DNA of 27,783 nt, from positions 1 through 27,783 of the IMG/VR virus record IMGVR_UViG_3300044984_002326. One strand, written 5' to 3'. The translations under genes were made by a program, and so were the position numbers. The notes beneath the pieces were generated by a model. That model made no database searches and had not been told where the DNA came from. It saw only the letters and a program-made list of their open reading frames with translations. Shown here piece by piece: positions 2-21,200 of the stretch. Origin of the DNA: a virus. Its lineage: Duplodnaviria > Caudoviricetes. The stretch's first letter is position 1; every line of letters begins with the position of its first letter.

Positions 2-2299
2 TGCGATAAGTTTACGGGTATCTTGATTGATTGAAGCTAAACCTGCAATATCGCGGATTCCTTGATACACCCACACAGCAGAACTTGTTGTCGCGTCCGT
101 GCAAACATAGACTGTGCCGTCATCAAGAATACGGCGTGATCCTATGATGTATCCTTTGGCAGCATCATCGGTGGTAGTTGGAACTGCCGTGAAGCCGAAC
201 ATCTCAGTGCGAATGGTGAAGCCGTCTTGACCCATCACATAGAGTCTTCCTGCTTCCCACTTGAACTCATAGTCAAGGGAGCAGACCATAGCGATACCAC
301 CTGCGCCACCGTTGCCAGCGTCAGTTAGTCCTTCTCTGAGTCGTGAACCATTAGCAAAATTGATGTCCGCACCTGCGTCCATTGTACCCCCAGCAAGAGG
401 CAAAGCACCAATATCAGCAGGAGTGAGCGGGTCGCTTCCGCCGATTGCGTGAGTCGGCGCGTGAAGAGCCAGTGCCTGTGTCGTGCCGAACAGTAGCTGG
501 TGATTGTCAGCGAAACCAGTAGTTCCAGTTCCGCCAGAATCTACAAGGGTGACGGGAAACGTAAAGTAGGCATTTGCGGTTCCACCGTCGGTCAAAGTCG
601 GTGTTCCAGAAACAGACCATAGCTGGAAATTCTGAGAATCGTCACGATCTTGCAAGAACAGTTGCTGTCCTTCTTGAATGAAGCCTAAGAAAAATTCAAT
701 GTCGTCATTGTCTTGATCCTTGTGTGATACGTTAATGCTGGTCGCGTCAACCTGAGTCGCATTGTCCCAAATGAGTCTCCCCGAAGTAGGATTACCAGTA
801 ATTATTCCCGTTTCAGCCCTGTAATGCCAAGTAGTGACTGAAGAATTTCCATTGTATCCACGTCTCCAAACGGCGGCGTCCTCGGTAGCGTCCGTGCAAA
901 TGTAGATTGTGCCGTCAACGGTTTCCCAACGAGTTCCGGGGACAAAACCTTGGGTTATGTCATCTGTTGAAGCTGGGTTGATTTCGTCGATTGCAAGAAT
1001 CCTCAAAATCTGACCGCTGTTGACTTGCCGCAGGATCATTCTGCCAGCAACCCACTGCCAGCGGTAGCCAACAGAGCATTCAATCTCCAACCCTTGTTCT
1101 CCTGCTTCTCGGATTGCTGAGCCATTATCCCAGCCGATTGTTGCATTGTCATCCATTGTGCCGCCAGCAAGGGGAAGGAAGTCACCCCCACCTTGCAGAG
1201 CCGCGAAAGAAGTCTGAACCCAAAGATCATAGGCGGGGGAACCAATCAAGGGCTCAAATAATTCCCAGTCTGCTCCGTATGGTGGATAGCCGGGATTGCC
1301 GGGATTGCTGATTTTAATGTAAAGTAAATCTTCATATAGAACAACGGAACCAACCGCATACGTGCCATCGCCGTTGTTGTATTCTCCGCGATAATCGACC
1401 GCGACTGGTTGCAAGGAAGTGTCAGCAAGATCTCCTTGCGCGGCAGTAGCAAAGGCTTCTACGTCTTCGGCAGCCGCAGTTCCTAGAATTGGCAAGTTGT
1501 TAAGGTCATCGTAATCACCGCTGGTAGCTACTTCAGCAAGATCTTCGGGCTGTACCGCGCTATCAGCCAAGTCTCCTTGCGCTGAGGTCGCGTAGTCGGT
1601 CGAATCTGTAAAGGCCGCACTGCCGAGTTCGTCTGCCGTTAGGGTTGTCTTTATCCAGACTGCCGCTCCGTTTGTCGCATTGACGCAGAGGTAGGCTTCC
1701 TGTCCAACTGAGTCATACCATTTAGATCCTCGGCTATACCCTTCCGTTACGTCGTCATTTATTGTCGGAGCTGCTACGGCCGTGAAATTGTCAATGGGTA
1801 TGCCTATGTTCTCTTTTGCTTGGGTTTTTTGAGGATCGGTAAGCGTTTGTTCTTCATCATAGCGCACATTTCCGCTGATAGGGTAGGCCGGAGGATTGGT
1901 CGTGTAGATCGGAATGACTGTTTCATCGTCCCTAGTAACGGCCTGCTCCAGTTTTAATTTGCCTACTTGGACGTGCCTACGCTCCCCGGTATCTGCATTT
2001 TGAGCAAGAATTCCCCAATAATATGATCCTGGGTCAATACCAACAACAACGGGATCGGCCTCGGCGTCACCGCGAGTATCAATCGGAACAATTGATACCA
2101 ATGCGTCGTTAAACGCGTTCAAGATTCCAGCGCCAGTTATTTTCTGGATCAACGCGTCTTCGTCGGAATCAGTGTCAGGATCAGCTTTTAAAGTAAAAGT
2201 CAGCAACCATTCATCTGTGGCTCGAAACGGCCGCCCCTCCCATATAAGCGGGATCCGATAAGTCTTGTTGTCTCCAATTTTTTGAGTAAGGGGTATCAT
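2..2299 (-). CDS. Tail fibre / receptor-binding protein, 3' partial (>=766 aa, runs off left edge); BppU-like N-terminal Ig-type domain followed by repeated fibre modules
   Basis: Not in the ORF track because it has no stop in the window. Manual translation from ATG at 2299 (MIPLTQKIGDNKTYRIPL...) stays open to position 2 (...NQDTRKLIA). N-terminus has the pattern GD..YRI..WLLTFTLK..ALIQK..VSIVPIDT..PGSYYWGI..VGKLKL..VTR. Also contains VRYDEEQTLTDPQKTQAKENIG, AQGDLAD(S/T)xxQP x2, LPLAGGTMD x2, HAPTHAIGGSDPLTPADIGA, and P..DD...G...G...Y.C..AT...AVW x3, all typical of phage fibre proteins. Confidence 0.8.
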   Translation of the reverse strand, partial: MIPLTQKIGDNKTYRIPLIWEGRPFRATDEWLLTFTLKADPDTDSDEDALIQKITGAGILNAFNDALVSIVPIDTRGDAEADPVVVGIDPGSYYWGILAQNADTGERRHVQVGKLKLEQAVTRDDETVIPIYTTNPPAYPISGNVRYDEEQTLTDPQKTQAKENIGIPIDNFTAVAAPTINDDVTEGYSRGSKWYDSVGQEAYLCVNATNGAAVWIKTTLTADELGSAAFTDSTDYATSAQGDLADSAVQPEDLAEVATSGDYDDLNNLPILGTAAAEDVEAFATAAQGDLADTSLQPVAVDYRGEYNNGDGTYAVGSVVLYEDLLYIKISNPGNPGYPPYGADWELFEPLIGSPAYDLWVQTSFAALQGGGDFLPLAGGTMDDNATIGWDNGSAIREAGEQGLEIECSVGYRWQWVAGRMILRQVNSGQILRILAIDEINPASTDDITQGFVPGTRWETVDGTIYICTDATEDAAVWRRGYNGNSSVTTWHYRAETGIITGNPTSGRLIWDNATQVDATSINVSHKDQDNDDIEFFLGFIQEGQQLFLQDRDDSQNFQLWSVSGTPTLTDGGTANAYFTFPVTLVDSGGTGTTGFADNHQLLFGTTQALALHAPTHAIGGSDPLTPADIGALPLAGGTMDAGADINFANGSRLREGLTDAGNGGAGGIAMVCSLDYEFKWEAGRLYVMGQDGFTIRTEMFGFTAVPTTTDDAAKGYIIGSRRILDDGTVYVCTDATTSSAVWVYQGIRDIAGLASINQDTRKLIA
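71..1768 (-). repeat. Internal protein-level repeats in the tail fibre: ~105-110-aa duplicated module (71-403 and 866-1177) whose C-terminal ~37-aa part has a third copy (1655-1768)
   Basis: Copies: PTINDDVTEGYSRGSKW...YLCVNATNGAAVW; PASTDDITQGFVPGTRW...YICTDATEDAAVW; PTTTDDAAKGYIIGSRR...YVCTDATTSSAVW. The two longer copies both begin LPLAGGTMD and contain W(V/E)AGR. Confidence 0.85.
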
Positions 2300-2304
2300 G
2301 GTAA

Positions 2305-2793
2305 TTAGCAGGTTGATCCCGGTAAAGTTGGGATAATGTCTTTAATCTTAACCGCGAATTGAATCTGCATGGCAATGTTCGCTCTTGCTGTGCTAGTTTT
2401 TTCGCTTCCACTGGTTTCAGCCAGGTCGCGGGTCGTCACTGATGTGCTGTTGTTTGTGCCTGTTTTAGTAGAATCTCGATTAGATGTTCCCGTTTTGCTG
2501 CTAGTATTAGCAACGGTTCCATTCCCGGTTTTGGTCGCGGTAGTATTGCGCGTTCCAGTTCCAGTTTTTGACCCAGTAGTGTTACGCGTTCCGGTTCCAG
2601 TTTTTGTTCCGGTGGAAGTGCGTGTTCCCGTTCCGGTTTTTGTTCCGGTAGAATTGCTTGTACGATTCCCGGTTTTTGTTCCGGTAGAATTGCTTGTACG
2701 GGTGCCATTACGCGTCGTAGTACCAAAGCGATTACTGGAAGTAATATCGCTTTTGTTATATTCATTCGCGCTATCTGTATTTTGAGTCGGCAT
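2305..2793 (-). CDS. Thr/Gly-rich basic 12-aa-repeat protein (162 aa), probable virion component
   Basis: ORF track; collinear and tightly packed with its neighbours. Repeat consensus TGTKTGTGTRxx with Lys at residues 40, 52, 64, 76, 88, 100. Short hydrophobic C-terminus IAMQIQFAVKIKDIIP. Confidence 0.75.
   Translation of the reverse strand: MPTQNTDSANEYNKSDITSSNRFGTTTRNGTRTSNSTGTKTGNRTSNSTGTKTGTGTRTSTGTKTGTGTRNTTGSKTGTGTRNTTATKTGNGTVANTSSKTGTSNRDSTKTGTNNSTSVTTRDLAETSGSEKTSTARANIAMQIQFAVKIKDIIPTLPGSTC
2458..2721 (-). repeat. Degenerate 36-nt tandem repeat encoding TGTKTG(T/N)xxxxx
   Basis: Recurring ccggtttttgttccggt-like units about every 36 nt on the plus strand. Confidence 0.85.
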
Positions 2794-2796
2794 TAT

Positions 2797-3378
2797 TTAA
2801 GATTGGGTTGATTCACTTTGCCCGCTACCGTTATATACGGTAGTAGTTCCTCCAACTGATGTATCATTTGTTGTTCCACTGTCGGTATCGGTATTTGTTC
2901 CGGTTTCCGTTGTAGTGTCGGTGTCCGTGGAATTTCCAGTTTCAGTAGTGGTGTCAGTATCAGTGGTAGTTCCGGTTTCCGTCGTGGTATCAGTATCAGT
3001 GGTAGTTCCGGTTTCCGTCGTGGTATCAGTGTCCGTATTTGTTCCGGTTTCCGTCGTGGTGTCGGTGTCCGTAGAATTTTGATTTGAAACGCTAGAATCT
3101 GTATCAATACCAATTTCAACACCTGTATCAACACTTGTGCCATTGGTGATAGTTGTAGTTGAACCACTTTGGCCACCTGTGTTTGTCCCAATATCAACAG
3201 AATCATACGCAAGCAATTCAGGTTGCCATGATTTGACGACAATAACCGAAAATTGAATGACTTCCGGCATTTCAACAAGTGTTCCGGCTATCCGTGCTTG
3301 TGCAAGGCCTGTGCGCACTTGCAAAACCGTTTCTTCAATGAAAGCGGGCAAATTTGCGATTGGGACGACGTTTTCCAT
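2797..3378 (-). CDS. Thr/Asp/Glu-rich acidic 12-aa-repeat protein (193 aa), probable virion component
   Basis: ORF track. N-terminal ~55 aa look folded (LPAFIEETVLQVRTGLAQA...EVIQFSVIVV), followed by about 5 copies of TDTDTTTETG(T/N)(N/T/S). No Lys/Arg after residue 49. Confidence 0.8.
   Translation of the reverse strand: MENVVPIANLPAFIEETVLQVRTGLAQARIAGTLVEMPEVIQFSVIVVKSWQPELLAYDSVDIGTNTGGQSGSTTTITNGTSVDTGVEIGIDTDSSVSNQNSTDTDTTTETGTNTDTDTTTETGTTTDTDTTTETGTTTDTDTTTETGNSTDTDTTTETGTNTDTDSGTTNDTSVGGTTTVYNGSGQSESTQS
2881..3072 (-). repeat. 36-nt tandem repeat (~5 copies) encoding TDTDTTTETGTx
   Basis: gtatcagtggtagttccggtttccgtcgtggtatca-like unit with a 36-nt period. Confidence 0.9.
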
Positions 3379-3381
3379 GTT

Positions 3382-4269
3382 TTAGTAGCCTTTTGGTGTG
3401 CCGACTCGGTTTGCCGGGGTTGAAAGTGTTTTAGGGGAAAGAATCGAGTATTCTGTCATTGCTGCTTTTTGTTCTGAACGGGCTTCGGCTTTCTCTTCTT
3501 GATTTGCCCACATTGAGGATTTGGTAAGGTGCCCGCGCGCGATCGGAATGAGATACGCTTCAATGTGCTCATCTCGCAGCGCCACCTCGGATTCATTATC
3601 GAGAAGATCCAGGAAGGTTACACGCAAAGGCGCTTTGGTTGCGTCGGCCTGGATGCGGTAAGCGACATCAGGAAGGGTGTTGAGACGGATGATCGACGGC
3701 ACCGGGGGATTTTGATTCTCGGCCTTGGCTTCCGGCCACCAACGATCCGGGCGGCCTATGCGCTTCTGTGGTGCTTGGTTGCGGCCGTAGTCCAGGCTTC
3801 CAATTGTCTTGCTGAAATCCTGGGTCACTCTGGTCCGGGTATCGATAATGTGAAGATCGCTGACAATTTCTTCGATTGTCGAAGGCACAAGGATGGCGTC
3901 TCCGTAAATAATGGCGCTCACCGTGCCTGTGGCACCAATGTAGGGGTGAAGCAGGGAGTTGGTTCCGTTGATCTGATTATCAACCGCGTCTCCGTCGATC
4001 CGGATTGTGCGGTAGAAATCACTTTCAGGAAAATTATACCCGGTGATCTCGGTGGATCCTTGAGTCACTCCCAGAGAAACGGTTTGCGGTGCCGGGGAAG
4101 AAAAAGAGGCAATTACTTGCTTGGAGTGCGGAGGCGCAAGGCTGTGGAGCTTTTGCCCGGCAAAATTGATAGCATCGACCAATTCAAGCCGAGTATCGGC
4201 AGTGAGATCGGCAAGAGACTTCTCTTTCAAATCTCGCATCAAACGTGAGGCTAAGGCGATCGTTTTCAT
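3382..4269 (-). CDS. Phage head-tail adaptor / neck ring-like protein (295 aa)
   Basis: N-terminal helices (ELVDAINFAGQKL), GRPDRWW, IRLNTLPDVAYRIQ, and EHIEAYLIPIARG follow the layout of podovirus adaptor proteins. TAATG overlap with the upstream gene. Confidence 0.55.
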   Translation of the reverse strand: MKTIALASRLMRDLKEKSLADLTADTRLELVDAINFAGQKLHSLAPPHSKQVIASFSSPAPQTVSLGVTQGSTEITGYNFPESDFYRTIRIDGDAVDNQINGTNSLLHPYIGATGTVSAIIYGDAILVPSTIEEIVSDLHIIDTRTRVTQDFSKTIGSLDYGRNQAPQKRIGRPDRWWPEAKAENQNPPVPSIIRLNTLPDVAYRIQADATKAPLRVTFLDLLDNESEVALRDEHIEAYLIPIARGHLTKSSMWANQEEKAEARSEQKAAMTEYSILSPKTLSTPANRVGTPKGY

Positions 4270-5057
4270 TATTTAGGTGCAACCGCCTCCTTCCGGTCGT
4301 TCATGTTGTCACCGGATAAACCGGGGAGGGGATCAGCTAAGCCGATCTGGCGCGCGACATCCAAGTATTCCATCATTAGGGATTTCTGTTGAGCTTCTCC
4401 TCCTGCAAAAAGCCAGAAACAAGAGGCGTAATATCTCACGGCCGGGAGAAGCAGGCTTTCAACGTATTTGTGAGGAATCGGCACAACCGTTCTGGCCGTG
4501 TAATCTTCCCAGGTGTAACGGGGCGCTTCATTCACGACTTCGAGAAGGATAACCGTTGCCTCGGTGGGTGCCGGAGTAATATGGATCGAGCATGACGCAG
4601 GATCGTTTTCAGAAGTGGCTTCGCGGTCAATGTAATAAGCAACCGGGCGATCCGGGGTTTCTCCATCCAGAAAAAGATCAGAAAATTGCTCTAACTCCGA
4701 CAAACTCCCGATCGGAGCCAATGTCTTGAGGTTTGACGCAAGCCTGGCATGGCCTGTGACGTTTTGCACGTTTCCGGGAAGGTTGATTTTTCCCTGGTTG
4801 GCTGGGAAGGTCAGCTCCAGCTTCGAACTCGTCCAATAGCTTCTTTCTTTGGCGCGGTTCCAAATCACCTGCATGGCGCGGTTCAAATCATTAAGCGCGC
4901 GCTTGCGGTAATGGATTGCCACGTTACAAGGGCTTTCCATCGCCCACATGAGGAAGACATCCAAAAGAATGTCCTGAACTGTTAGCGCGTAATTCACCCC
5001 GGCGAGCCTGGGAGAAAAGCTCACGTTACACGGGAAATTTACGGAAGGAAGTGTCAT
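4269..5057 (-). CDS. Phage head-tail adaptor / neck ring-like protein (~262 aa; start moved from 5090 to ATG 5057)
   Basis: ALNDLNRAMQVIW...LELTFPANQGKINLP...PDRPVAYYI...IHITPAP...VPIPHKYVESLLLPAVRYYA is an adaptor-type pattern. ATG at 5057 forms an ATGA overlap with the stop of the 133-aa gene. Confidence 0.6.
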   Translation of the reverse strand: MTLPSVNFPCNVSFSPRLAGVNYALTVQDILLDVFLMWAMESPCNVAIHYRKRALNDLNRAMQVIWNRAKERSYWTSSKLELTFPANQGKINLPGNVQNVTGHARLASNLKTLAPIGSLSELEQFSDLFLDGETPDRPVAYYIDREATSENDPASCSIHITPAPTEATVILLEVVNEAPRYTWEDYTARTVVPIPHKYVESLLLPAVRYYASCFWLFAGGEAQQKSLMMEYLDVARQIGLADPLPGLSGDNMNDRKEAVAPK

Positions 5058-5455
5058 TGCATGGAGAAAGACAACGATCCGGCTGGCCATGAGGGAGTGT
5101 CCCCGGCTGCGATCGTGACTTGTTGGCTAAGGTTTGCTGAAAAAAGGAGGTTGCCGCCTGAAGAAGCGTCAAAGATCCCAACTGCTCGAACGGCACCCCA
5201 GGAGGCGGAGGGCTGCGGAAATGCGATTTCCTGCCCGTTGGATTTCACTCCATTGACCGCCGCTGGGAAGTTGGTGTTATTGTTTGTCACCTCCACTCGC
5301 TCATAATCGTTTCCGGTTACTTCATCTCCGCTCCCATCGTCTCCGATAGCAGTAGTGAAAAGGCCGACGAACACCGAGGCCGGGCGAGTGTAGTCGCCTC
5401 CGCCCAGGATGTGATCCAGGATTTCGTTTTCAAGATAATCGGAAAGTGCGCTCAT
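5054..5455 (-). CDS. Small beta-rich virion protein (widespread family often annotated 'tail fiber protein'), 133 aa
   Basis: Recognisable pattern MSALSDYLENEILDH...VGLFT...EV.G..Y.RV.V...N...I.FP..S.SWG.V..VGIFDA.SGGNLL. Confidence 0.7.
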   Translation of the reverse strand: MSALSDYLENEILDHILGGGDYTRPASVFVGLFTTAIGDDGSGDEVTGNDYERVEVTNNNTNFPAAVNGVKSNGQEIAFPQPSASWGAVRAVGIFDASSGGNLLFSANLSQQVTIAAGDTPSWPAGSLSFSMQ

Positions 5456-5462
5456 GGTGGTA

Positions 5463-6029
5463 TTAAACTAAGGGTTCTGCTGCGGGTGACTCTCCAGCGG
5501 AAGCGATAAAGGCCAACGCTTTTTCGCGGAGCTCTCCCTCGCCTTTGACCATCTTCAACTTGCCTTCAAAAAGGCGGCCGACGATCCGGCCTTCGTGGTA
5601 GATGTCGTCACCGTCTTGGAAAAAACCGTAATTAAAATCTTTTGTGACTAAATTGGAATCTTCGGAGGTAGATTTGATTTCTTCGGAGGTGGGCTCCGAA
5701 TCTTCGGAGGTGGGCTCCGAATCTTCGGAGGTGCTTTTTTCCACTGTTTTTTTGGCAAGCGCTTTACCGAGTTGTTTACGCTCGTAGGCGTCGGGCTCTC
5801 CCGTGTTTGGGGAAGCGTTTGCTTCGATCATGGCCAAGGGCCGGAAATTGTAACCGCTCGTGCGATAGTTGGGGTCAAAGATCGTTTCGCAAGCCGCGTT
5901 GAACTCGTGAACGTCCATGATCTTGCCCTGGTAGATGTATTTCCCAAGCTGCTCGTTGTAGGGGAAATCTGACATACGCGGGAATTGGCCCTGGCGAAGT
6001 CGATTGCAGATATAAATGATAAATTTCAT
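5463..6029 (-). CDS. Hypothetical phage protein (188 aa) with a 7-aa acidic repeat
   Basis: ORF track; fills the gap between the capsid terminator and the next virion gene. Contains TSEDSEP-type repeats. Confidence 0.7.
   Translation of the reverse strand: MKFIIYICNRLRQGQFPRMSDFPYNEQLGKYIYQGKIMDVHEFNAACETIFDPNYRTSGYNFRPLAMIEANASPNTGEPDAYERKQLGKALAKKTVEKSTSEDSEPTSEDSEPTSEEIKSTSEDSNLVTKDFNYGFFQDGDDIYHEGRIVGRLFEGKLKMVKGEGELREKALAFIASAGESPAAEPLV
5656..5733 (-). repeat. 21-nt tandem repeat, 4 copies (TSEDSEP)
   Basis: tcttcggaggt recurs at 5659, 5680, 5701 and 5722. Confidence 0.9.
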
Positions 6030-6046
6030 AATGTGGCGTTTTCTTG

Positions 6047-6090
6047 AAAAAAAAGGGTAGCGGGGAAAGAACCGAAATTCTCTCCCCGCT
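6047..6090 (-). terminator. Rho-independent terminator after the major capsid gene
   Basis: Minus strand reads AGCGGGGAGAGAA-tttcgg-TTCTTTCCCCGCT-accc-TTTTTTTT, starting 13 nt after the capsid stop. Confidence 0.85.
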
Positions 6091-6103
6091 GGTTGGTGGT
6101 TAA

Positions 6104-7570
6104 TTAAGCCACGGTTGGGAACGAAATTCCCGGATAGCTGATAGCGTGGCGAACACGGACAACCGCAGGGTGACGGCCTTTACGGTCTTCACGGATGGTT
6201 TGACCAAATACGCTGGTGATGAAGCGATCCATAAGGAATCCGCCTTCATGCACTTGCTGGCTACGATGGCCACGGTGTTTGCCGTAACCGCGAAGCGCTG
6301 CACACTTGCCGAGCACAAGGGTATCACCAATCGGAACTCCTTTGGAGTTACAAGGAATGATGAGGGATCCTTCTGGGTGCGCGTCGGTGTGTTTTCCGCT
6401 CCATACTCCAGTGTTCCAAACGACATCACCAAGGGTAGTGACGCGAGCGCCGGAAGCGGCGGAGCCAAGGCGATTAACGATAGTGATTTTCTCACCGTCG
6501 TTGCCAGTAGTGTAGGAATACATACCGAATTTACCTGCATCGGCACCAGTGGTGTTGCAAATGAGGAAATAACGAGTTTCGGACGCTGGGCTGAATATGC
6601 CTGTATCGACAAACTCATAAGGACTACCCGCGAAATAGCGGAAGAAATCAGAGCTGTCGGCTTCGGCTGCGGTGCCGCCACCTTTAACGTCGATTGCCGT
6701 GGTGCCTGCGGTGATTGCAACACCGAGGAAAGCTTTCGGGTTAAGGAACGAGCCTTGTGGGCCAACTCCGTCGTGGTCAATTGGGTTGTAAGGAACAACC
6801 GTGTGGCCATCGATGGAAGGATAGCCACCTTTGAAGATGGTGTTTCCTTTGCCGCGAATGTCACCAGAAGCAAGAACCGTTTTGTAATCCGGATCAAGTT
6901 TAAGAGACAGAAGTGCAGCTTCGGTGGCGATAACGGATTGCGACCAGATCGGCTGACCGGATTGCTTGCCTGCGACGTTCGCAGGAAGGCCTCCCAGGGG
7001 CTTCATGGCTTGGCCAGCGGTAACAATCTCGTCCCATACAAGCGCATCAGCACTGGAAAGGGTATTGAGAGTCTTGCCGTTGGCAAACAACACGTTTTCG
7101 CTATTCAGTTTGAGCTGGAACATACCGAAAAGCTGTTCGGACTTGGTGCGGCCGAGCCATTTACCAAGCTCAATGTTGAACTTGGTTTTGATCTCGTTAC
7201 GCATACCCATAACTTCTTCCATGCGCTCGCTGTTACGAACAGCGTTACGAATGAAGTCAACGGTAAGCGTGAAGTCACCAACACGAACCGTCTCGAAGTC
7301 AGAAGGGCCTTCGAAGAGAGCTTCTCCGAATTTACCTTTGTTGTAGAATCCACTCATAGGAGTGAATACCATCGATTGGCCGCGTCCTTTAGCGGTGTCG
7401 GTTTTTGCCCAGATCGGGGCGCGATCCGTCGAACTTTCCATTTGTTGGAAGAAGTCTTCGGTTTGTTCGGCAATCAGGACGCCCTGATGCCAGAGCTTGC
7501 GAACGCTCGCGGGAGACATTGCAGCAAGTGAGGTGCCGGTATTCGGCGATGTGAAGTCAAATGAAGGCAT
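6104..7570 (-). CDS. Major capsid protein (DUF4043 / N4-gp56-like, HK97 fold) with a probable insertion domain, 488 aa
   Basis: VRKLW...PIWAKTDTAKGRGQSMVF...G..GEALFEG...FTLTVDFIRNAV...LGKWL...DPDYK...RGKGNTIFKG...IDG is the DUF4043-type pattern. It lies after the scaffold gene and is followed by a terminator. Confidence 0.85.
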   Translation of the reverse strand: MPSFDFTSPNTGTSLAAMSPASVRKLWHQGVLIAEQTEDFFQQMESSTDRAPIWAKTDTAKGRGQSMVFTPMSGFYNKGKFGEALFEGPSDFETVRVGDFTLTVDFIRNAVRNSERMEEVMGMRNEIKTKFNIELGKWLGRTKSEQLFGMFQLKLNSENVLFANGKTLNTLSSADALVWDEIVTAGQAMKPLGGLPANVAGKQSGQPIWSQSVIATEAALLSLKLDPDYKTVLASGDIRGKGNTIFKGGYPSIDGHTVVPYNPIDHDGVGPQGSFLNPKAFLGVAITAGTTAIDVKGGGTAAEADSSDFFRYFAGSPYEFVDTGIFSPASETRYFLICNTTGADAGKFGMYSYTTGNDGEKITIVNRLGSAASGARVTTLGDVVWNTGVWSGKHTDAHPEGSLIIPCNSKGVPIGDTLVLGKCAALRGYGKHRGHRSQQVHEGGFLMDRFITSVFGQTIREDRKGRHPAVVRVRHAISYPGISFPTVA

Positions 7571-8759: not shown

Positions 8760-8806
8760 TTCTTAATATCTTGTCAATCCGAAAGATTTTGGGTAAATGT
8801 TTTTTA
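8741..8806. promoter_or_regulatory. Putative divergent promoter region centred on TTGTCAA (8771-8777)
   Basis: Perfect TTGACA on the minus strand (8777-8772) overlapping TTGTCA on the plus strand (8771-8776), in the AT-rich gap between divergent genes. The -10 hexamers at 17-nt spacing are weak (GAGTTT; TAAATG). Confidence 0.45.
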
Positions 8807-9471
8807 TGAGCGAGCCGCAATCAGTATTTCCAATGGGAGGCGGCCTGGCTGGGCCAATGGGCGGGTCAGGAGGCGGTTTGCCGGAGGATATGATGTTCGC
8901 CCGTATGGCTCATCTTGAAATGTTTATTGGAAGCTTTGCCCCGCACCTAATCGATGCCAAGATCGATGGGATTACAAAAAGATTGCTAATTATGGCAATC
9001 AGACAAGCTGGGTCGGGAGAGTATTATGAAAAACATCCTTGGAAAGTAACTTACAACGCTCCAGACCCAGAAATAGAAGACCCCCCAAATGAATGGAGCT
9101 TCATAGGTGATACGGTTTATTTTTGTGGGCAAGGTGATGATATTTTGGTCGCGGATGGAACCGTAACGGGAGAGACTGGATACGTCTTGCTGAAAATAAC
9201 CAGAAGCGCCAGCGCAAGAGAAGGAACAGCCGCAGAAGTAATTTGGTCTGAAGACGTTTTAGAATCCGGTCAGAACTATCAATACAGAGTTTTAGCCAAA
9301 GTTATTGAAGGAACTCCAGCCACTGAAGAGACACCGGGAGAGCCGCCAACAATAATCCAATATCAGTTTGAGGAAATTCGATTGTTTGAAGAATTGGTTG
9401 TAATCAACGGTGATTTTGCTTTGCAGGTATATGAAATTAGCCACAGAAACAATTACGACCTACCACCATAA
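8797..9471 (+). CDS. Hypothetical acidic protein (224 aa; start may be ATG 8806), first gene of the inverted cassette
   Basis: ORF track; no comparable ORF on the minus strand. TAATG overlap with the next gene. HPWKV motif followed by beta-rich sequence. Confidence 0.75.
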   Translation: MFFMSEPQSVFPMGGGLAGPMGGSGGGLPEDMMFARMAHLEMFIGSFAPHLIDAKIDGITKRLLIMAIRQAGSGEYYEKHPWKVTYNAPDPEIEDPPNEWSFIGDTVYFCGQGDDILVADGTVTGETGYVLLKITRSASAREGTAAEVIWSEDVLESGQNYQYRVLAKVIEGTPATEETPGEPPTIIQYQFEEIRLFEELVVINGDFALQVYEISHRNNYDLPP

Positions 9472-10364: not shown

Positions 10365-10444
10365 TTTGACTAACCGTTTATGATTTTTCTCGCCAAATTA
10401 CGACTTACTCAGTAATTTGCGGTCGTAACAACCAATAAAAAATT

Positions 10445-10772: not shown

Positions 10773-11096
10773 TTACAACCCGTATTCTGTTCCGTCGCCA
10801 GGAAATCTTCCTGATGCGGCTAATACGTTGCATTGCGCGTTACGATGATCAACTGGCCATCTGAGAACTTCCAAAATGCCTAAACGGTGATTTCTTTTGG
10901 CTTCGCGCTCTTTTTCAATCAATGCGTCATTGTGAAGTATTTCGTCGGCCAGTAAATCAGCTCGTTCTTGAAAGTATTGCATAAACTCCTGAAATTCAGG
11001 TGAGCGCATGAGCTGATCAATACTGCTTACCGCTTCTGCGGCTCTTTTTAATACCTCGTCGGATTGTTTTTGTTGTGCGGGTCGTATTGTGTTCAT
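10773..11096 (-). CDS. Small helical protein downstream of portal (Bbp19-like position and pattern), 107 aa
   Basis: ATGA overlap with the portal stop. IDQLMRSPEFQEFM...RLGILEVLRWP pattern of small genes found between portal and scaffold. Confidence 0.6.
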   Translation of the reverse strand: MNTIRPAQQKQSDEVLKRAAEAVSSIDQLMRSPEFQEFMQYFQERADLLADEILHNDALIEKEREAKRNHRLGILEVLRWPVDHRNAQCNVLAASGRFPGDGTEYGL

Positions 11097-13288
11097 AAAT
11101 TAGGAGCTCCTTGCCGGGGCTTAGGCTTGGCGGCCTGTGCTACTTGCGTCGCGTTTGGCATACCTGCTGGCGGTGCCTGGATAACGGTCGGCTGGATGAT
11201 TTCATCCACGGCGGAAACTTGCAAGGCTTTGAGCATATCCTGGAAGAGCTTTTGGGTGCGCTCTTGGATCTCCGGTGCCATCGCATAAAAACGCTCCACC
11301 AACTCCACGGCTCTTACCGAGCTTTCGAGGATCTGCTCGCCACGGTAGCGAGTGAGTAGGATCCTGGTATCGATTTCCATGTCGGCGATCTCGCCCGGAT
11401 CAATTTGAAGCATTTCCTCGGCACCTTCTCCGCCTTCGCCTTCTTCGAAGTAGCGATAAACCTCCATCTTGTCCAAGTTGGCGAAAAGAAGTCGAACCAT
11501 CTTTTGAAGGGTGCCCGAGACGCCTGGTTCCAAGTGGCCGAGATACAAGCTGAAAAGCTCCTGGCCGCTTTTCTCGATGTTCCTGATGCCAGTGGCAAGT
11601 TTCTGTGAATCCATACCCACGGCCTGGCCGTCGTTGGCGTTGTTTACTCCGGATTCCGTTACCATGAGCTGAAGGAAGAACTCGGTGAGCTCCTTGATAT
11701 TGTCCTTCGTGTTGTTTTCCAGATAAACCGACTCCAAACAATCTTTGGCTGACTTGCCAGGAAGCGGGGTGTAGGTGCCTCCCCAATTCAGCGCCAGGCC
11801 GGAGTTGGCTCGGCCTTCCAAAGTGTTGTGAGGGTTCCAGAAATCCACGCGGGCTGCGCGCGATTGGGCAAAGTTCCAGCGGTTGACCAGTAGATCGACA
11901 ATCTGCTGGGAGGATTCGAACATCTCCATTGTGCCGATACCATACCAACGGCCGGGAACTTCGTTGACTCGTGTTACCGAAAACGGCCGCAAACCGTCAG
12001 GAGTGACGTTGGCAACGTAATCATAGAAAATCGGGGTGCGGGTCTTGCGATCGACAATCAGCATGATGTCTTCAAGCAGGCCGTCGCCGTCGGCGTCGTA
12101 GCGGAGGTGAAATTCTGCGATCTTTGCCAGCGGTGCGGTGCGGTCGCCACGGTTGAAAGCGCTGCCGCTTCCCATGTTGCTGTCGGCCGTGTTCTGGCCG
12201 CTTTCGGGCTCCGGGGTGGAATGAGCAAGCTCGCTGATCAGGTTGATCGCTTTTTGCACGTCGCCATAGTGCTGCATCGCTGTTGCAGATTGTTCGGTTT
12301 GTTTTCTCCATTGGTCCGCCAAATCCATTACGGCCTGGTCGTAGAGGTGCACAACGCAATCGGCGGTCTGCACATCTTCCGCGTCGAGTGGGCAAAGGAA
12401 GTCGAGATAATGGATCGTTTTTGCTTCTGGTCCTTTGTATTGGGTGATGCGGCGGGTAATCGGTTTTTCTTGCCAGATCATGTTTTGCGGCTGCGGAGTC
12501 TGTCCGTCTCGCTTCAATACCATTACATTTCCCATCATTTGCTCTCCGGTCATTGGATCTTGAATCACTTGCTGGATCCACAAGTCGGTTTCGAGAATGA
12601 AATCACCATCAAGGCCAAGAATGTCGGCCCCGGCCTCGTCCACAAGCACGGTAGCTGTGGTTTTGTAGTATTGCTCCCGGTTTGCCCAGGTGGTTTTCAC
12701 TACCGCTTCCCCAAGCGTGAAAGCGCGCTCAATAGCCTGCTCTTGTGATCTTTTGAGCTTGGCTTGATCCATTTTCCAACGGGTGTATCTGTCTGCTTTG
12801 TCGGCCCTGATCCGGTCGGCGGCTCCTACCGGGTAAATACTAAACCAAGGATCGGTGCCAAAGAAGTAATTGACGGCACGGGCAACCATTTGACGGGCAA
12901 TTTTGCGGGCAATCGGCACAACAAGGTTGGATTCGGCGAAAATGCCTCCCAGGATGTAGGCACGGTGCTCCACGTTGTTTTGTGAAACCAAATCGTAGAG
13001 CCTGCGCTTTCCTAAGAAGGTGCGCTCGGTTGGAACTCCGCCTTCAGGATCGCGATATTCTCCAGTTGCGGCCGTATCGTTCATCCACCAGTCTCCGGCT
13101 CCGGCTATATCCCGGCCAAGCTCGCTTTCAAGCTGCTGAAGTCGATCAAAAGCATGATTGATCAATTCCGCCTCCTGGGTGCGGTTTAAGACGTAATTGG
13201 TAGGGAATGGCATCAACGGTGATTCCCCATCGTCCTCCAGTGGAATATGCTGTGCCTGTGCTGAGATTCTGTCGAGTTGGTCGTCCAT
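11093..13288 (-). CDS. Portal protein (podovirus/P22-like), 731 aa
   Basis: Size and position, plus AFTLGEAVVKTTW, IHYLDFLCPLDA and RPFSVTRVNEVPGRWYGIGTMEMFESSQQIVD segments typical of podoviral portals, and a Q/P-rich C-terminal tail. Confidence 0.85.
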   Translation of the reverse strand: MDDQLDRISAQAQHIPLEDDGESPLMPFPTNYVLNRTQEAELINHAFDRLQQLESELGRDIAGAGDWWMNDTAATGEYRDPEGGVPTERTFLGKRRLYDLVSQNNVEHRAYILGGIFAESNLVVPIARKIARQMVARAVNYFFGTDPWFSIYPVGAADRIRADKADRYTRWKMDQAKLKRSQEQAIERAFTLGEAVVKTTWANREQYYKTTATVLVDEAGADILGLDGDFILETDLWIQQVIQDPMTGEQMMGNVMVLKRDGQTPQPQNMIWQEKPITRRITQYKGPEAKTIHYLDFLCPLDAEDVQTADCVVHLYDQAVMDLADQWRKQTEQSATAMQHYGDVQKAINLISELAHSTPEPESGQNTADSNMGSGSAFNRGDRTAPLAKIAEFHLRYDADGDGLLEDIMLIVDRKTRTPIFYDYVANVTPDGLRPFSVTRVNEVPGRWYGIGTMEMFESSQQIVDLLVNRWNFAQSRAARVDFWNPHNTLEGRANSGLALNWGGTYTPLPGKSAKDCLESVYLENNTKDNIKELTEFFLQLMVTESGVNNANDGQAVGMDSQKLATGIRNIEKSGQELFSLYLGHLEPGVSGTLQKMVRLLFANLDKMEVYRYFEEGEGGEGAEEMLQIDPGEIADMEIDTRILLTRYRGEQILESSVRAVELVERFYAMAPEIQERTQKLFQDMLKALQVSAVDEIIQPTVIQAPPAGMPNATQVAQAAKPKPRQGAPNL

Positions 13289-13300
13289 TACTGTATTTTC

Positions 13301-15250
13301 TTATTTGAGGTTTCTCCAGGCTTCCTGCATCACAAGAACACGTTTGGCTATTTCGCGAGAATCAGAAACAATTTCTCTGAAGCGTTTAATATCCATTTCG
13401 GTTGGGTTGTCGATGTTGAAAGGCGTTCTTTTTACTTGTGATTTAATTCTATCTCCAGCCACTTTTACAAATTTGGAGTATTGATCGGCGCTCATTGTCA
13501 CTGATTTTTCTTTTGTGATAGGATCGGTGTAAGTTTTTCCAGCGCTAGATGGTGCCACTAGGTCTGCGTTTGGATTCTGGCGAATCCAGTTGTAGAGCAT
13601 CTTGTCGGTTTTTTCTGACGCGCCATAAACGGTGGTGTCGGTAGGATCAAAAATCCGGCCTAAAGCGGTCTTACCTGGCTTTTCCTGATCCTGGCCGTAA
13701 AGATTTACTTTTGCGGGAAGCCCGGTGATTTCTCCGGATGGGAAGGTTGCAGCAATCAGCATATCCTTGAACTCGGTCGGTCTTTCGCGGAAAAGCGGAT
13801 CGGATTCGCGGAGAGCTTGCTTCACAAAGTTTGGCATGATCACCGAAAGGCGATCGGCCGCAAACTTATCGATAGCGCCTTCACCGCTGAGAATCTCCAG
13901 CATATCGGCGGCTCCGCGCAGCGAAGTTTTTTCGTTGATCTGGGAAGTGAGGCCGGAAAGTGCCTTGCCAACCATTTCCCCGGTGCCAATCTTGCCAGAA
14001 GTGCGAAGTTTTACCGCTTTGAGGGTGTCAACCGTGCCTCCCATCATTGTGGCGAATGGCTCGATACGGCCGTAACTAACCGAAAGCCGTTTTCCGCCAG
14101 GCATCTTGATGGAGATCGTGTAGGGACCTAAGCCCATGCGGTAGCCAAGCTCGCGCTCACCTTTTTTTGTGTCCTTGTAAGGCCGGGATCCGGTGATAAG
14201 GATGGTTTTCTCCAAGTCGTCGTCGTCTCCCTCTCCGAGAGCTGCCAGCACGGCCAGGAGCACAACACCTTGCATTTGTTTGGAGGCGTATTCGATCAGG
14301 CGCTCTTTGCCTCCGTCGGCATTAAGAGTGAACTTGCCGTTTTTTACGCGGAGATTGGAACCGATCAGAATCGACATATCGAGAATACTGAGCGGATTGA
14401 CGGTGCGCTCGATGCCTTGCTGCATGATGTTAAACGGAACACGGATGAACGGGATGAAGAGCATCCGAGTTAGCGTTTTCAGTGTCGCCGTTGTGCTATT
14501 TTCAAGCTCAACCGGAGTAAGCGCTTTCTGGATTTTTCCAAGGCTGAAACCTACGAAATCCATTGCGGTTCTCACTGGAACCACGTTTTCGCTCTTTTTC
14601 TTCGATTGCTGCACGGTGGATGGTTGGCCGGGAAGCGGAGCGTTGAAAGATCCTTTCAGGGCTCGATCGGCTGCCATTTGCCAGGAAATGCTTCCGGGGG
14701 TATTTACTTCCAGTTGCAGGAAGCGCGCAAACTCTTCGGTGCCCGGTGTCATTCCTTTTTTCTTGGCCATCCGGAAAGCCATAGCGCCAACCTCGGCCGA
14801 GGCCCGGAGGGTGTTGAGGAAGTCGTCAGTTGCCATCAGGATGCGCGACGGGGTGCGAATAATCCTGCCTTTCACTCCGGCAATGCTGCCAGGTCGATAG
14901 CTGGATCCTGCTTCTGCAATCCGTTGGAAATCCGGTGGACGGTTCAAGATGTCTTCTTCGAAGAATGGAATCTCGGTATTCCAGGTCGAAATAGCGTTTG
15001 ACCAGGCGCGCGCCCAACCTGGACGAAGTGCTTTCATTAGGTATTGGTATTCCCCAAGGCTTGCGTTGTCCTTGTTGCCGATCACTGAGTTAAGCATTGT
15101 CTCGAATCCTCGATCTACAACGGCCTGGTAGGTGCTGTTGACGATGCCAGTGGCGTTGACGATCATCGTCTGGAGGCCGGAAAGAATCGACGAATAGTAG
15201 TATTCCTGAACCTTTTCGATGGCGCTCGCGTTAATGGCGGCGATGGTGCG
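13301..15250 (-). other. C-terminal helical region resembling phage internal virion / DNA-ejection proteins
   Basis: SILSGLQTMIVN, RILMATDDFL, LFIPFIRVPFNI, PYTISI...SYGRIEPFATMMG patterns recalled from large podoviral internal proteins. Boundaries approximate. Confidence 0.5.
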
Positions 15251-18200
15251 GGCGATGATTGCGACGTGGCGGCGGTCGTTGATGTCGAAACGGTAGTTGG
15301 CGGCCTTCATCTTGCCTTGTGCCATCTCCAGGGCGTCGGTCTTGTATTTGGCCAAGATCACGTTCATTTCTTCGATGAGCTTATCGCCTTTGACCCGATC
15401 CTTGCCTGTGAGGGATTCCACGGTTCCGGTGATACCGGTAAGCAAGCGGAGCTCAACAACCCGTTCCATGAGGTCGGTGCGCTCGGTGGTGGTAAAAGCG
15501 TAATCCTCCAACCCTTCGCTGAACTCTGGGCGGTTCCAATCAACCTCATAGGCCTTTTTGGGTTCCAGGGTCTTTGGTTTGCGCTTGGTAGGGTTTTGCT
15601 TCTTCCATTCGCGGATCGCTGCTTTGCGGCCGCGCTCGGTGGCGGCTTCCGCGTCAAGGATTCGCGCCTGTTCGGCCGTCGCGCCCAGCGATTGAGCGAT
15701 ACGGGCGAAATTCGGCACGGGCTTGGCCAGGTGGGCTCTAATCAACTTGTTGAGCTCGTCCTCTTTGCCTGCTGTCTTCCAAGCGAGGGTGTCTGACTGG
15801 CTGATTGCAAGGCGATCGATCCAGCGTTGCGCGATCCGGTTGGCTCCGGCCTCCAGTGAATCCTCATCGTCTTCGATCTTCTTCGGCACTTTCTTGGCGG
15901 TCGGGATCCCTGACTTCTTCTGAAGCGATTGTGGAATACCGAATCCAACTGAAATGATACGATCAATCTCGGCTTGGACCTGCTCCGGAGTAAGTCCACT
16001 TAGGGCTGCTGACTCAAGCGCTCCCTTCATCTGGTCTTTCATGTCCTCCAGGGTCATGCCCGCCTCAACCTTGGCGCGGATCTTCTCTTCGAGCTTTTTG
16101 TAAAGGTCTGCCCGGATCTTTTCGATCTTGGCATCCGGAAGGCCTGTTTTGCGTCGGATCGCGTCGAAACCGTTACCTTGCTGCATGAGCTTCACGGCCA
16201 GGCGGCTCGCGTTGTCCATCTTGTCGGTGATGTTCCGGATGATCCGGTTCTGACTCAGTGAAAGGAAAGCTTCGCCGTTTAATACCTCGTCGATAGTCAC
16301 TCCCATCTTGGCGAGCTCTTTCTCGATGCGTTTGATCTGATCCACGGTTTGCTTCTCGATCTCCTGCTCTTTGGCTGCCTGCTGCTCTTTGGTGCCGCTG
16401 CCAAAGCGCTCTTCGATGTTCCTCATGTCCTTTTCAGGAAGAGTGGTGATCAGGTTCACAAGCTGCTCTCTGTGGCGCTGCTCTGGCTTTTTGAGGGTGT
16501 CCACCCCGGCTGCCATCACTCGCGCGATGTTGGCGCGGGCGGAGCGGTAGGCGTTGCGGAGGATTGCAACCTTGGCGAGTTTGGCTGGATCTCCCCCGGC
16601 CTGCTTGGCACGGCGCTCCATGATGATGCGAATTGCTACCACGAGCTCCGGATTGAGCTGTTGGGCGTCAAACTCAACTCCACCTGCGTCGGCGGCTTTG
16701 TCGGCCTGCAATGCGGCGGCCAGCCATGTTCTGACAACTTTATCTTCGTCTTCATTAGCAAGTTTTTCCCCGGCTTTGTTCCATTGTGCCCAGGTTTCTC
16801 GGTTGGCGTAAAGTTTGCGGATCTCGTCTTCCTCGTCGAACAAATCACGAGTTTCCTCGCTCATGCCTGGGTTAGCCAGATCTGGACGGCCAACAACTTT
16901 GCCTTCTTCCTTGAACGCAGCTTGCTGCTTGCGGATCTCTTCACGCTCTTCCAGGGTTCCCATTTCGCCGAGATCGTCTTCCAGCGGGGCGTTGTAAAGC
17001 GCCTGGCCTGCTCCTACGGCCTTGCGAAGCTCTGGAGTAATGGTGATTTTCCAGAAGTCTCGAACTGTTGGATCGTTCTTCTCAAGCCAATCCTCGGCCG
17101 CTCTGATTGACTCAAAATCGGCAATTCCTTCCAAAGTGACACGATGGCGAATAATAACCTCTTGTTTTGAGTCCACGTCGGCTCCAATGTCTTCCGCGTC
17201 GAGAATATACATTCCCTCGGAAGCTTCGGAAAGTTTAGCTTTCTCGACCTTGGCTCCCCACTGTTTGACATACTTGCCGATTTCCTTCGGAAGCATGGTG
17301 TCATAGAAGCCTTTCATTCCTTTCCCTCCTATATTAAGCCCTTCCCCACTCAATTCCCCAGATTCACGGCTTAGTATTAGATCAGCTACATCTTTCCCTA
17401 TTACTTCATCCAAGCGGGAACCATCGGGGACAATTCCTGCTGCTGATTCCCCTGAATTATTGATAACTGTTCCGTCAGGTTTAACGAAGAATGTGAACCC
17501 GTTTTGACCTATGGGTTCAATAAATACATCTCGATTTATGCTATTCTTGCTCGTTACCCAGTCAATAGACTTAATGTGGTTTGATAGGTTGTATCTATCG
17601 TTCTGCGTTTCTCCGGTCGTCCAGCCGATCCAATCCTTGCCGGATCTCACCGCGTCGCGCAAAGCGCGCTTGAACATCTGGAGCGGCCAGCTTGTGCGAA
17701 ATGGTGCGTCGGCGATTCCTTCCTCTCTTTTGTCATGGAAGACTTCGTTCAAATCGACATCGGATCCAACCGCGTCGCTTAATCTTTTCCACTGATCGCC
17801 TGTCGGGCGGGCTGCTGTGGATAATGGCTCTTCCAATAAATGATCAATGTCGGCACGGGCGGCTGCTTCGGTCATTCCTCCGGCGATAGCGGCCTTCAAG
17901 ACGTTTTCAGGAAAATCTCCCTTGTAACCCTTCTTCCGTCCCGCCTGGTGGCGATCGCTTTGGATCTCTTCGATAAAAAGGCCTTTTTCATCCCGATTCA
18001 CTTCTTTGATCTCCAGTGAATAAGTAGCGGGGTATTGCTTCATATCAGCTTCCGCTTCCCCAAGGGTAGCAAACACCGGACCTGTTCTTCCGCTCTTGGT
18101 ATTCCGGACAGTGTAACCTTTGCCGGGAAGCGAGCGCTCGTTAAGCCTCATGTGGGCGACGTAGTTCGGGACGTCAGGAAAATGCGTAGATCTATAATCT

Positions 18201-21200
18201 ATGCTGCCTTGCTCTATTGGAGCGTATTCAGTCATTTCAATGGCTCGCTCAAGCGTGGCACCTTCCGATACAACGCCTCCTTCTGGGTCCTGAACGTACC
18301 AGTTGTTGCCGTATTGCTCAAAAGTGAAGCCTGCATCTTCCAAAAGCTGCTTTTGCGACTTCTGGCTGCCTCCTGGCATTGCCAGCACAACCTCGCGGTA
18401 GTTTTCTCCGCCGGGAAGCTGGTATTGGGCGTATTTGGTAGCGTCATTCACTCCAAGCTCTTGCTCATCTCCTGTGAGCTCTTGTATTTCATCGAACAAT
18501 GGCTGGAGGTCTTCAGGTAGATCATCGTAAGTAATGTCTTCATCCTCTTCGACGTTAAATATGATGTATTCTCCGTATTCTTCTTGAAGTTCATATCCTC
18601 TAGCTTCGATTTGCGCTGTGAGCTCGGCTATTCTGGCTTGGTTTTCAGAGCGTCCCATTGTGACTTCTTTGAATTTCACTGATCCCTCAGTGGCAAGCCA
18701 GTTAAGCACGTCGTCCTTGGAAACCTTTTCTTTGCCTTGCAACCAGGGAATAAGTCCGCTCCACTTGATTTCGTCAGCCTTGGCTCCGGCTTTGGCAATC
18801 TGAAGCACCTGCATAGGCGTTGCCGTTTTCGGCATTTTTTCGGTAATCGTGCGCGATAGCTGGGAATAGAATTCCGGCATCTCGTCGGACAGATCGGCAT
18901 TTTCCAGTCTTTTTCCAAAAAGCTCTTCGTTTATTGCTTTGATCATCTGGAAAGCTTCTTCTCGCCTTTGCTCAATAACAATTTGATCGTTCGCTCTAGC
19001 CTCTTCAGCATCTTTTTTTGTTTCAAAATAATTTGGACGCAATACATAAGTTTCAGGATCGCTGATGAGCACGGTGAAATAGATTTTGCCTAAATGCTTG
19101 GCCAGTTCCACCGGGTTGGCTTCGATGGGCAAATCGTAGAGATCGGCCGTTTCCAGGCCGCCATCTTCGCGCTTGGTAAATCCGTAAGGAATCAACGTGG
19201 ATTGAGTTTGGCTCATTGCCTCTTCCTCCATATCGGTCAGCTTCTTGCGAACCTCTTTAATTTTGTTCACTAGGTTTTCACGTCCAGATCCAGACCTTAG
19301 TTTTTTATCGAGCCCTTCGAGTTTTTTGCTCTGAACTGCGTGAAGTTTGTCGTATTCCTTGTAGTCCAATCCTGGGCGTCTTTTGAGTTCTTCCAGCTCT
19401 TCCTCCGCTTCCCTGATCTGATCTTTAATCATCTCTTGGCGCGGAGTTAGGAGTTGCCCCTCAAACTGCTCGTCAAAGCGAGTAAGCGCTTTCTCCAGGC
19501 CTTCGAGCTGGCGACGGAGTTTGATCCGCTGCGGTGAGCCTTTCGAGCCCTGGCGCGCGTCCTGGATGAATCCAGCGAGGTCGTATTGTGACTCTTCGAC
19601 TTCTTTTTCCTCTGGCTTGGTTTCAGTGGTTTCAGCGAGATAGGCCTTGTAGGCTTCTCCTGCTGATTCTCCTTCGCCGAGAATATCTCCATCTGAGTTG
19701 TATATCCGCCATTTGCCAACATCGCGGAAAAGGCCGGAAATAAACCATCCATCACCGCTCGCCGAGGTATCATCCGGGCTCGCAAGGAAAAACTCGCCTC
19801 CAAGAACTCCGCGAATCTCTTCCTCGGTAAGCTCCTTGCTGTCAGGTGGTGCTTCAAATGGATGATCTTCAAAGAGCCTATTCCCGGCTTCATCCATAAC
19901 CTTCCTGTAATCGACCGGGACTAATCCGCCGTTTTCACTTTCCAGTAATATCCAGTAGCCTGTTTTGTCCCAGCGGTGTGCCTCGACGTCGCGGGCTTCC
20001 CCATCGACATAAACTAAGGATCCAGCCGGAGCTCCATTACGGAGCCATGATGGTGCCGGGAACGGTGATTGTGATAATTCGGTGAGGATCTGCAAAAGCG
20101 CCTTTTTCTTGGAATCCAATTCCGGCTGGCGGGTAAATTCTTTTCCAAGCATTTCCTCAAGCGAGGCGATCGACTTGGCGAAATCGCCGAATCTCTCTTG
20201 CCTGTTTGAGACGTTCCTCATCAGGCCGCGCATGGATCCTTCCAACGATCCGAGGCTTTGAGCTCCAAGTGTCATTTCGTGCCTGGCTCCATTTGGGAGA
20301 GCTATCTCAATTCTCCATTGGATCGGCTGATTGCTTCCAGAATCCCATTTGAGGCGAAGGGTGATGTTGTCGCCATATTTTCCAAGGATCTTGCCGTCAT
20401 CCTTACTGGTTGGGATAGGTTGATTGGCGATTGCCTCTTCCGCTTTTTTCCGCTCGGTATAGGTCTTGCCAAGGAATTGAAATTCAAAATCTTTGGTGAA
20501 GGTGCCTTTGATTACATCAATGACTTTTTCAAAGAACTCAAGCTGGTCCTTTTCATACTTTTCATCTTTCTTGAGATCGCGGATCGATTCCCGTGCTTTT
20601 TCGATGGATCGGAAATGGGTGTCGCGCTTCCGTTCAAGTTTATTGACATCTGCCGCGAGCTTGGCCCGGAGCAAAAGGCGAGGATCCCCGGCCGCTGCCG
20701 AGAAAGATTGCTCGAAGTCAGCGACGCTCGATCCTCCTTCGTTCATGTCGGCACCGTCCCCGGCGAGAACGCGGAGATTGTTTTGCCCCTCCGTATTGAG
20801 AAGCATTTGAGTGAATCGGTAGATGAATCGCACCTTGTTCAAAAGGACCTGCCAGCGGCGGCCGTCGTGTGATCCTTCCGCGAAATAGCGGTATTCATTC
20901 ACGGTGTTCCATCTGTTGCCTTGTCTCCAGCCGCGTCCGTTGCGCTGTTCAAGAGCGCCAGGCGTCCAGGGGGCGTCAAGATGGTGCATTGCGCGGAGGT
21001 TGCGCTGGGCATTGACTCCGGTTCCCATTGTTTCGGTGCCGCCGATCATAAAGCGCACTTTCCCCTGATTTGCGAGGGAGGCAATATCCGCCTTGGTCAA
21101 CTTAGCCGAAATCTTCAAAACCTTGCGGAGAGGGTCATTTGGGCGCAAAGCGATAGGATCGAGCGACATATTTCCGAGAATGGCGATTTCCTCCGGTGCT

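Follow-up and report, generated by a model that had tools for sequence, protein, structure and literature searches.

The window analysed here, a 27,783-nt stretch of viral DNA (IMG/VR record IMGVR_UViG_3300044984_002326), is part of a podophage. Its structural genes include two adjacent genes, here called A and B, which lie between an adaptor (ring) gene and a probable fibre gene. The features are given below in coordinate order.

2..2299, minus strand: probable tail fibre or spike gene that follows B directly and is truncated where the window ends (judged from position and variability among relatives)
2305..2793, minus strand: gene B, 162 aa, putative returning basic beta-strand and conserved hydrophobic tail
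2308..2382, minus strand: B tail, residues 138-162, with the motif ANIAxxIxF...P...C
2383..2793, minus strand: B shaft, residues 1-137, with a Thr/Asn face and a Lys/Arg/Gly face; 36-nt repeats at 2516-2693
2791..2799, minus strand: A/B junction, TAA-ATA-ATG, real (sequence and contigs of other runs), its frame not conserved in the family
2797..3378, minus strand: gene A, 193 aa, conserved head and putative outgoing acidic beta-strand (ORF call and family profile)
2800..3213, minus strand: A shaft, residues 56-193, with a Thr/Val/Ile face and an Asp/Glu/Gly face; 36-nt repeats at 2880-3074
3214..3378, minus strand: A head, about residues 1-55, modelled as a short strand, a long helix (residues 7-30) and a strand ending at Trp51
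3382..4269, minus strand: second adaptor (ring) protein of 295 aa with the adaptor fold of podophages (fold and structure search)
4269..5090, minus strand: first adaptor-like protein, 273 aa (motifs in common with the ring protein)
5054..5455, minus strand: GP4 gp80-like head fibre protein (PF23140, E 3e-41)
6104..7570, minus strand: major capsid protein (phrog_334, E 2e-8)
11093..13288, minus strand: portal, SU10-like (family searches)
13301..27769, minus strand: giant 4822-aa DarB-like methylase/helicase protein (family searches)

A matching gene block was found in Luteolibacter pohnpeiensis KCTC 22041 (L040), where the structural genes are apparently intact, and in 5 of 401 sampled genomes of that family, which makes Verrucomicrobia the probable hosts. 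When a Verrucomicrobiota sample was searched with the A head, 1 genome of 401 matched, the one already known. The stretch was present in 20 lake or freshwater runs from 20 studies; there was no RNA data set among the matches listed, and a scan for promoters and terminators gave results at chance level.

The second adaptor gene lies directly upstream of A in nearly all loci. The ring protein model (pLDDT 87.6) matched the adaptor rings of GP4, DEV, VP1, B2, N4 and crAss001, with E values of 1e-5 to 9e-4 for GP4, DEV, VP1 and N4 and a structural alignment to an adaptor of Z 11.9 (200 residues aligned, rmsd 4.8). Searches of cultured phage genomes with the protein, and of PDB sequences with its profile, gave no match. 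An initial annotation of this DNA had proposed that A and B encode a tube or needle protein, and the structure matches of their upstream neighbour support the tail context. The product of 4269..5090 is probably a paralogue of the ring protein, forming the first ring. In L040 (3457-5004, 515 aa) and L003 (4024-5004, 326 aa) the first ring protein has N-terminal repeat extensions, compared with 273 aa here; L003 and L053 carry two copies of the gp80-like gene.

The giant DarB-like protein, which is likely to be injected, has methylase and SNF2 helicase regions and about 2000 C-terminal residues without an assigned family; similar giant genes precede the portal gene in relatives. Between portal and scaffold, three plus-strand genes (8797-10765; 224, 297 and 106 aa) oppose the structural operon and may represent a variable cassette for a tail tip, a plug or a moron. 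In relatives the slot is occupied by different genes without an assigned family, of 384 aa in G1056 and of 186, 644, 354 and 145 aa in G1059. The 188-aa gene after the capsid gene contains a perfect 21-nt repeat (5680-5733, SEDSEPT-type), at a site where relatives have variable low-complexity linkers.

Composition and junction of genes A and B

Both genes lie on the minus strand and share a reading frame in the window, and the ORF calls and window sequence confirm that they are joined by TAA-ATA-ATG, as first described. Residue counts also bear out the opposite charge of the two shafts. The final Lys or Arg of A is residue 49, and residues 56-193 (138 aa) contain no Lys or Arg, 25 Asp or Glu and 54 Thr; residues 17-122 of B contain 16 Lys or Arg and a single acidic residue, D107. 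Each shaft has one charged/Gly face and one Thr/Val/Ile/Asn/Ser face, both faces being polar, with no membrane-spanning belt.

Tandem Repeats Finder located a 36-nt array in each gene, of 5.4 copies in A (2880-3074) and 4.9 copies in B (2516-2693). The 12-residue period reported in the initial annotation is present in both chains (z 7.5 for A and 9.5 for B, against shuffles), but it does not extend along the whole shaft. Because the arrays run to only about five copies per gene, strict 12-mers cover less than half of each strand, about 60-65 residues, and the remainder is non-repetitive with the two-residue alternation kept. A variant of A known from A alone (P0001, 181 aa) has one 12-mer fewer than the window protein.

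The A/B junction was spanned without any letter difference by one contig in each of four runs out of four, from four studies; these contigs break within the repeats, so repeat counts are not readable from them. The possibilities that the TAA is a sequencing error, or that it is read through to give one chain, were both raised at the outset. The identical junction in all four runs argues against an error and, as 26 of the 40 distinct pairs in the family have A and B in different frames (14 have them in frame), error and read-through are both excluded. In several loci B is preceded by a ribosome-binding-like AGGAG of its own.

Conservation, length and charge register of the pair

The A-head profile identified 199 clusters, counted as representatives at 50% identity. 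At all 66 retrieved loci with a complete A gene, a B-type ORF starts between -12 and +30 nt from the A stop codon and none of the pairs is fused; these loci include duplicates of one contig, with B complete in 62 and cut by the contig end in four. The B tail was found on none of 149 A representatives (from the best 150 of 199 listed; best E 0.67). The question of whether fused homologues exist, which the initial annotation had posed, is thus answered by separate but linked genes throughout. Distinct pairs numbered 40, and 42 with two later additions, many of them close relatives; L081, in which the anchor motif is absent, was omitted, and loci broken inside A were dropped. The window A and B gave nothing significant against Pfam and PHROG, and whole A had no useful match in the Atlas.

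The pair was not found in G002, a relative with two rings whose genome is 64% complete, or in G004, L055, L056 and L023. In L055, a 907-aa gene without a family match occupies the A/B slot; a search for this gene in five A/B records, run without a positive control, did not find it, and A/B may conceivably stand in for a nozzle. L039 has another start after the ring gene, its contig ending 130 nt further on. In G003, a diverged pair has been relocated away from the tail genes (L124 16977-18560, minus strand), with 18-residue repeats in both chains (identified by eye) and a length difference of 12. The A gene of this pair has no ATG start, and the pair adjoins a glycosyltransferase-like gene and a Cys-rich protein.

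Shaft length was taken as the residues after the conserved Pro anchor of A and before the conserved Phe anchor of B. Across the 42 distinct pairs, which span 62-236 residues, the strand lengths of A and B correlate with r=0.987. Within clades the values are 0.984 (20 pairs), 0.999 (16) and 0.956 (6), with median differences of 8, 17.5 and 13. Outlying differences of -20, -2, 16, 26 and 37, compared with clade medians of 8-18, all occur in repeat-rich genes; the first three belong to three near-identical phages and differ in steps of an 18-residue unit. The outliers, and likewise the shorter A of P0001, may reflect assembly collapse, which is plausible for the repeat-rich genes, or real tolerance of mismatch.

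Where both chains carry strong repeats (14 pairs), every period is even, and the two periods are equal in 11 (12/12, 18/18, 10/10, 6/6 and 4/4) and multiples in three, so that co-variation of A and B, proposed earlier as a check, holds for both length and period. Most family members are non-repetitive. Among A representatives, even lags exceed odd lags in 109 of 141; of the 17 strong periods, all but four are even (13), and the odd ones belong to distant members.

We observed an antiparallel charge register in the 12 non-repetitive pairs. When A was compared with reversed B, opposite charges peaked at offset 8 (z 5.8), a peak reached by none of 400 face-preserving shuffles, and the parallel control gave 2.3; offsets 6, 12 and 10 were the runners-up, leaving a second register ambiguous in this set. 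Own-genome partners scored 70 and permuted partners 2.3 (0 of 5000 permutations), at offsets 8 and 10 picked from the same data. In the window, if residue i of A faces residue j of B at i+j=192 or 194, 13 of the 17 basic residues of B stand opposite an acid and like charges never clash; this also places the last residue of A opposite the first residue of B. Both registers agree with the hairpin turn predicted beforehand at fused residues 192-194. The net shaft charge is negative in 37 of 40 pairs.

In one clade there are three such genes: A and B are followed by a small ORF and then by a paralogue of A, A2, with a C-terminal FDxxTGxWG...C cap. The length of A2 minus that of B is 30-33 in 15 of 15 trios. 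Opposite charges of A2 and B peak at offsets 10 and 8 (z 7.1 and 6.2), and those of A and B in this clade at 10. The Cys-containing A2 cap may form a tip. The three-gene version is found at L059 4306-6822 and in L060-L079; its small ORF is a coiled coil, its B is more than half Ser, and spanin-like and lysis genes lie directly after it.

A clade of close relatives (L085-L093, region ~4989-6600) illustrates what stays constant. In L085 and L087, A is (ENRN)n and B is (TSTG)n, and in L088 and L093 the arrangement is reversed. The total length difference is 41 in four of five despite the exchange, and there is no significant charge peak (139 of 400 shuffles, three pairs). As the repeats are exchanged and the length difference is kept, the invariant is matched length together with a bulky/small or acid/base complement. 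The electrostatic zipping suggested in the initial annotation fits the 31 of 40 pairs in which A is acidic and B basic, but the ENRN/TSTG exchange makes it one solution and not the rule.

We consider an antiparallel pairing of A with B, in a sheet or barrel of alternating strands, very probable. A prediction of the A+B complex with alignments scored 0.05, with the partner fold uncertain, and counts neither for nor against this pairing. The length lock, the even periods and the charge register support the original view of the two chains as outgoing and returning antiparallel strands. The further claim that strand (repeat) length sets the length of the assembly, with the ends flush at the gene junction, is supported by the co-variation and the register. 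The A/B pair is real and conserved and, on sequence evidence, would build a beta-assembly of matched strand lengths that belongs to the tail module in these podophages of Verrucomicrobia.

A proposed two-chain tail tube and its alternatives

We hypothesize that A and B together form a single long beta-hairpin, each chain supplying one half. The A strand would leave the small helix-strand head and the B strand would return to it, where the hydrophobic B tail would complete the head sheet beside A residues 41-51, a route to which the co-variation strongly points. Two registers two residues apart suggest that each B strand is flanked by A on both sides, and the ABAB alternation would then close into a barrel with a shear equal to its strand number. 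The heads would dock under the second adaptor ring. As the adaptors are dodecameric, 12 A and 12 B chains may be expected, giving 24 strands, a backbone diameter of ~43 Å and a rise of 2.7 Å per residue. The barrel would be a non-contractile tail tube and DNA conduit. Its charged/Gly face, net negative, probably lines the lumen, with the Thr/Val/Ile/Asn/Ser face on the other side; the interiors of tail tubes are described as negatively charged (PMC9022992). Strand length would set tube length, at ~32-40 nm here by calibration on Andhra (10.1101/2022.07.21.500982) and roughly 13-60 nm across the family.

On balance, we favour the identification of this barrel as the tail tube of the virion, if by a modest degree. 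The role is supported by the portal, the capsid, the gp80-like fibre, the adaptor fold upstream and the fibres downstream. The relatives listed above in which the pair was not found, and its relocation in G003, raise doubt about an essential tube, and A/B may be accessory if the unassigned genes between portal and scaffold encode a nozzle.

The pairing evidence, both length lock and register, would also fit a narrow needle, spike or plug (for example of 3+3 or 6+6 strands) that closes off the tail or probes the surface of the host and through which no DNA passes. The high Gly/Ser content of the charged face suits a crowded core, and absence or relocation in some relatives is expected of an accessory part. 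However, the long Arg and Glu side chains that the ENRN repeats place on the Gly face would be too big for a six-strand core of ~11 Å backbone diameter. In addition, the complete genome G1056 shows no further gene for a tube or nozzle beyond the rings, and none of nozzle size between rings and fibres. We regard a needle as unlikely.

It is similarly unlikely that the two proteins travel inside the virion, or loosely attached to it, and form a barrel only at infection, as a tunnel through capsule or periplasm for DNA and the DarB-like protein, its length tracking envelope thickness. The fourfold length variation, the 4822-aa probable injected protein and the resemblance of the A head to Pepco, whose barrel acts on membranes and has an amphipathic helix at its base, are consistent with such a tunnel. 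The A/B shaft, however, is polar on both faces with no belt to span a membrane, and the genes sit between adaptor and fibres and not beside the giant gene.

The main charge peak, at offset 8, by itself requires a single A-B interface, as would be found in a heterodimer forming a two-stranded ribbon or flexible fibre, such as a side appendage or ruler, with no closed barrel. In the window and in A2:B, however, a pair of registers separated by two residues implies that a strand has neighbours along both of its edges, and the length-locked third gene requires a higher-order assembly, which makes a ribbon less likely again.

Finally, the TxT arrays of the window and the 14 in-frame junctions would suit low-complexity or solenoid (ice-binding, TxT) proteins acting independently of each other, or a single gene that is read through or interrupted by an error, but this is highly improbable given the Ser, Asn and Glu/Arg versions of the Thr arrays, the genome-specific complementarity of A and B, the junction evidence and the AGGAG before B. 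TxT beta-solenoid ice-binding proteins have regular TxT rows with turn residues in one chain. Such a solenoid was rejected as a candidate for A/B, in which the Thr face becomes Ser or Asn in other members and periods of 4-18 track the partner gene; the ice-binding idea of the initial annotation explains nothing extra, and Thr rows are not conserved across the family.

Relation to known tail tubes and defence pores

The multi-ring podophage tails of GP4 and crAss end in a nozzle or muzzle. The phages carrying the two-chain pair resemble them in having two adaptor-type rings and a gp80-like fibre, but have no nozzle or muzzle gene after the rings. The DEV adaptor shares its fold with the ring protein upstream of A, and in DEV the dodecameric tube gp75, 330 Å long with a 36 Å lumen, is attached directly to the adaptor (PMC11445570), indicating that a dodecameric tube can sit directly on this fold. 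DEV gp75 is a single 321-aa protein, likened by its authors to the portal barrel (PMC11445570), and has no sequence match to A/B. The split nozzle reported for phage A1002 is another case of split tail genes, different from A/B (PMC13730344).

The closest parallel in design is with the lower-collar tubes of picoviruses. In phi29 gp11, the P68 lower collar and Andhra gp16, a beta-hairpin extends from a small helical head and its length sets that of the tube; according to the Andhra study, the 128-residue hairpin of gp16 gives a 150-Å, 32-Å-wide DNA barrel, 40 Å longer than that of P68 with 28 extra residues (10.1101/2022.07.21.500982). In A/B, too, a long antiparallel hairpin would set the length, here as read from sequence co-variation alone. 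In the picovirus tube a single chain makes the hairpin through a covalent turn, the portal clip is the docking site and a knob forms the end, whereas A/B has two chains (three in one clade) and low-complexity strands and belongs to a double adaptor-ring podophage of another lineage. No PHROG, Pfam or PDB sequence match connects A/B with lower-collar proteins. A/B would work like the picovirus lower-collar tube but, with two chains and no detectable homology, does not appear to be a member of that family.

To our knowledge, the beta-barrel tail tubes described so far are built of hairpins that are each a single chain with a fixed sequence. Our search of the literature, mostly outside subscription journals, found no account of the A/B pair or of a two-chain tail barrel, and as far as searched the length-matched design of two chains, or three in one clade, is undescribed. 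Across many phages, separate strand genes keep length, repeat period and charge register in step. A/B would thereby be a natural and testable ruler for tail length, and a ready template for long soluble beta-nanotubes of programmable length. The cultured host L. pohnpeiensis KCTC 22041 opens the pair to bench work.

The initial annotation had also pointed to a loose likeness to Trypco2, the domain of Pepco (PF19631), split between the A head and the B tail. Of the two parts, the A head alone keeps this likeness, and weakly. An Atlas search gave Trypco2 as a lead for the head (0.77). In HHalign, the head matched 20 Trypco2 domains with a probability of 70% (P 4e-5, score 27.5, 42 columns), above all 60 block-shuffled controls (maximum 16.3), a result for a chosen pair that is not significant at the scale of the whole of Pfam; against a six-sequence Trypco2 alignment the probability was 4%. 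None of 147 A representatives exceeded the PF19631 cut-off of 24.2 bits, one matching at 13.9 bits (E 0.068). The B tail scored 8.5 against the last Trypco2 strand, a short region for which 32 of 60 controls were higher. The A-head model (pLDDT 86.8 for residues 1-62) has a helix at 7-30 and then a strand; a fold search with this 62-residue model gave a best Z of 3.3 and BFVD E values above 4, and the A-head profile had no match among PDB sequences. A separate Verrucomicrobiota lipoprotein-like ORF with two tandem Trypco2 domains was seen at L095 1231-2016 (minus strand), with no protease evident next to it.

Pepco assembles into barrels of 9-11 subunits with a charged lumen (10.1101/2025.11.14.688446). 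The A head is like Pepco in that an amphipathic helix followed by the first strand aligns in register. Pepco is one chain of ~100 aa with a hydrophobic exterior and a linked protease, a protease-activated pore of bacterial defence. A/B, in contrast, has two chains, a hairpin five to ten times longer, two polar faces and no adjacent protease, its neighbours being the adaptor ring and fibres rather than a protease-sensor gene. It is possible that A/B is a distant relative of Trypco2/Pepco, and not a member; for Pepco ancestry we see the arguments as nearly balanced, leaning slightly against. The full combination, in which the DNA conduit of Verrucomicrobia podophages is a hetero-oligomeric barrel of 13-60 nm made from two or three co-evolving genes with a head homologous to the Pepco pore, is doubtful as a whole. 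Its interest lies in the evolutionary connection that may exist between the tails of phages and the defence pores of Pepco: if true, tube and pore share an ancestor.
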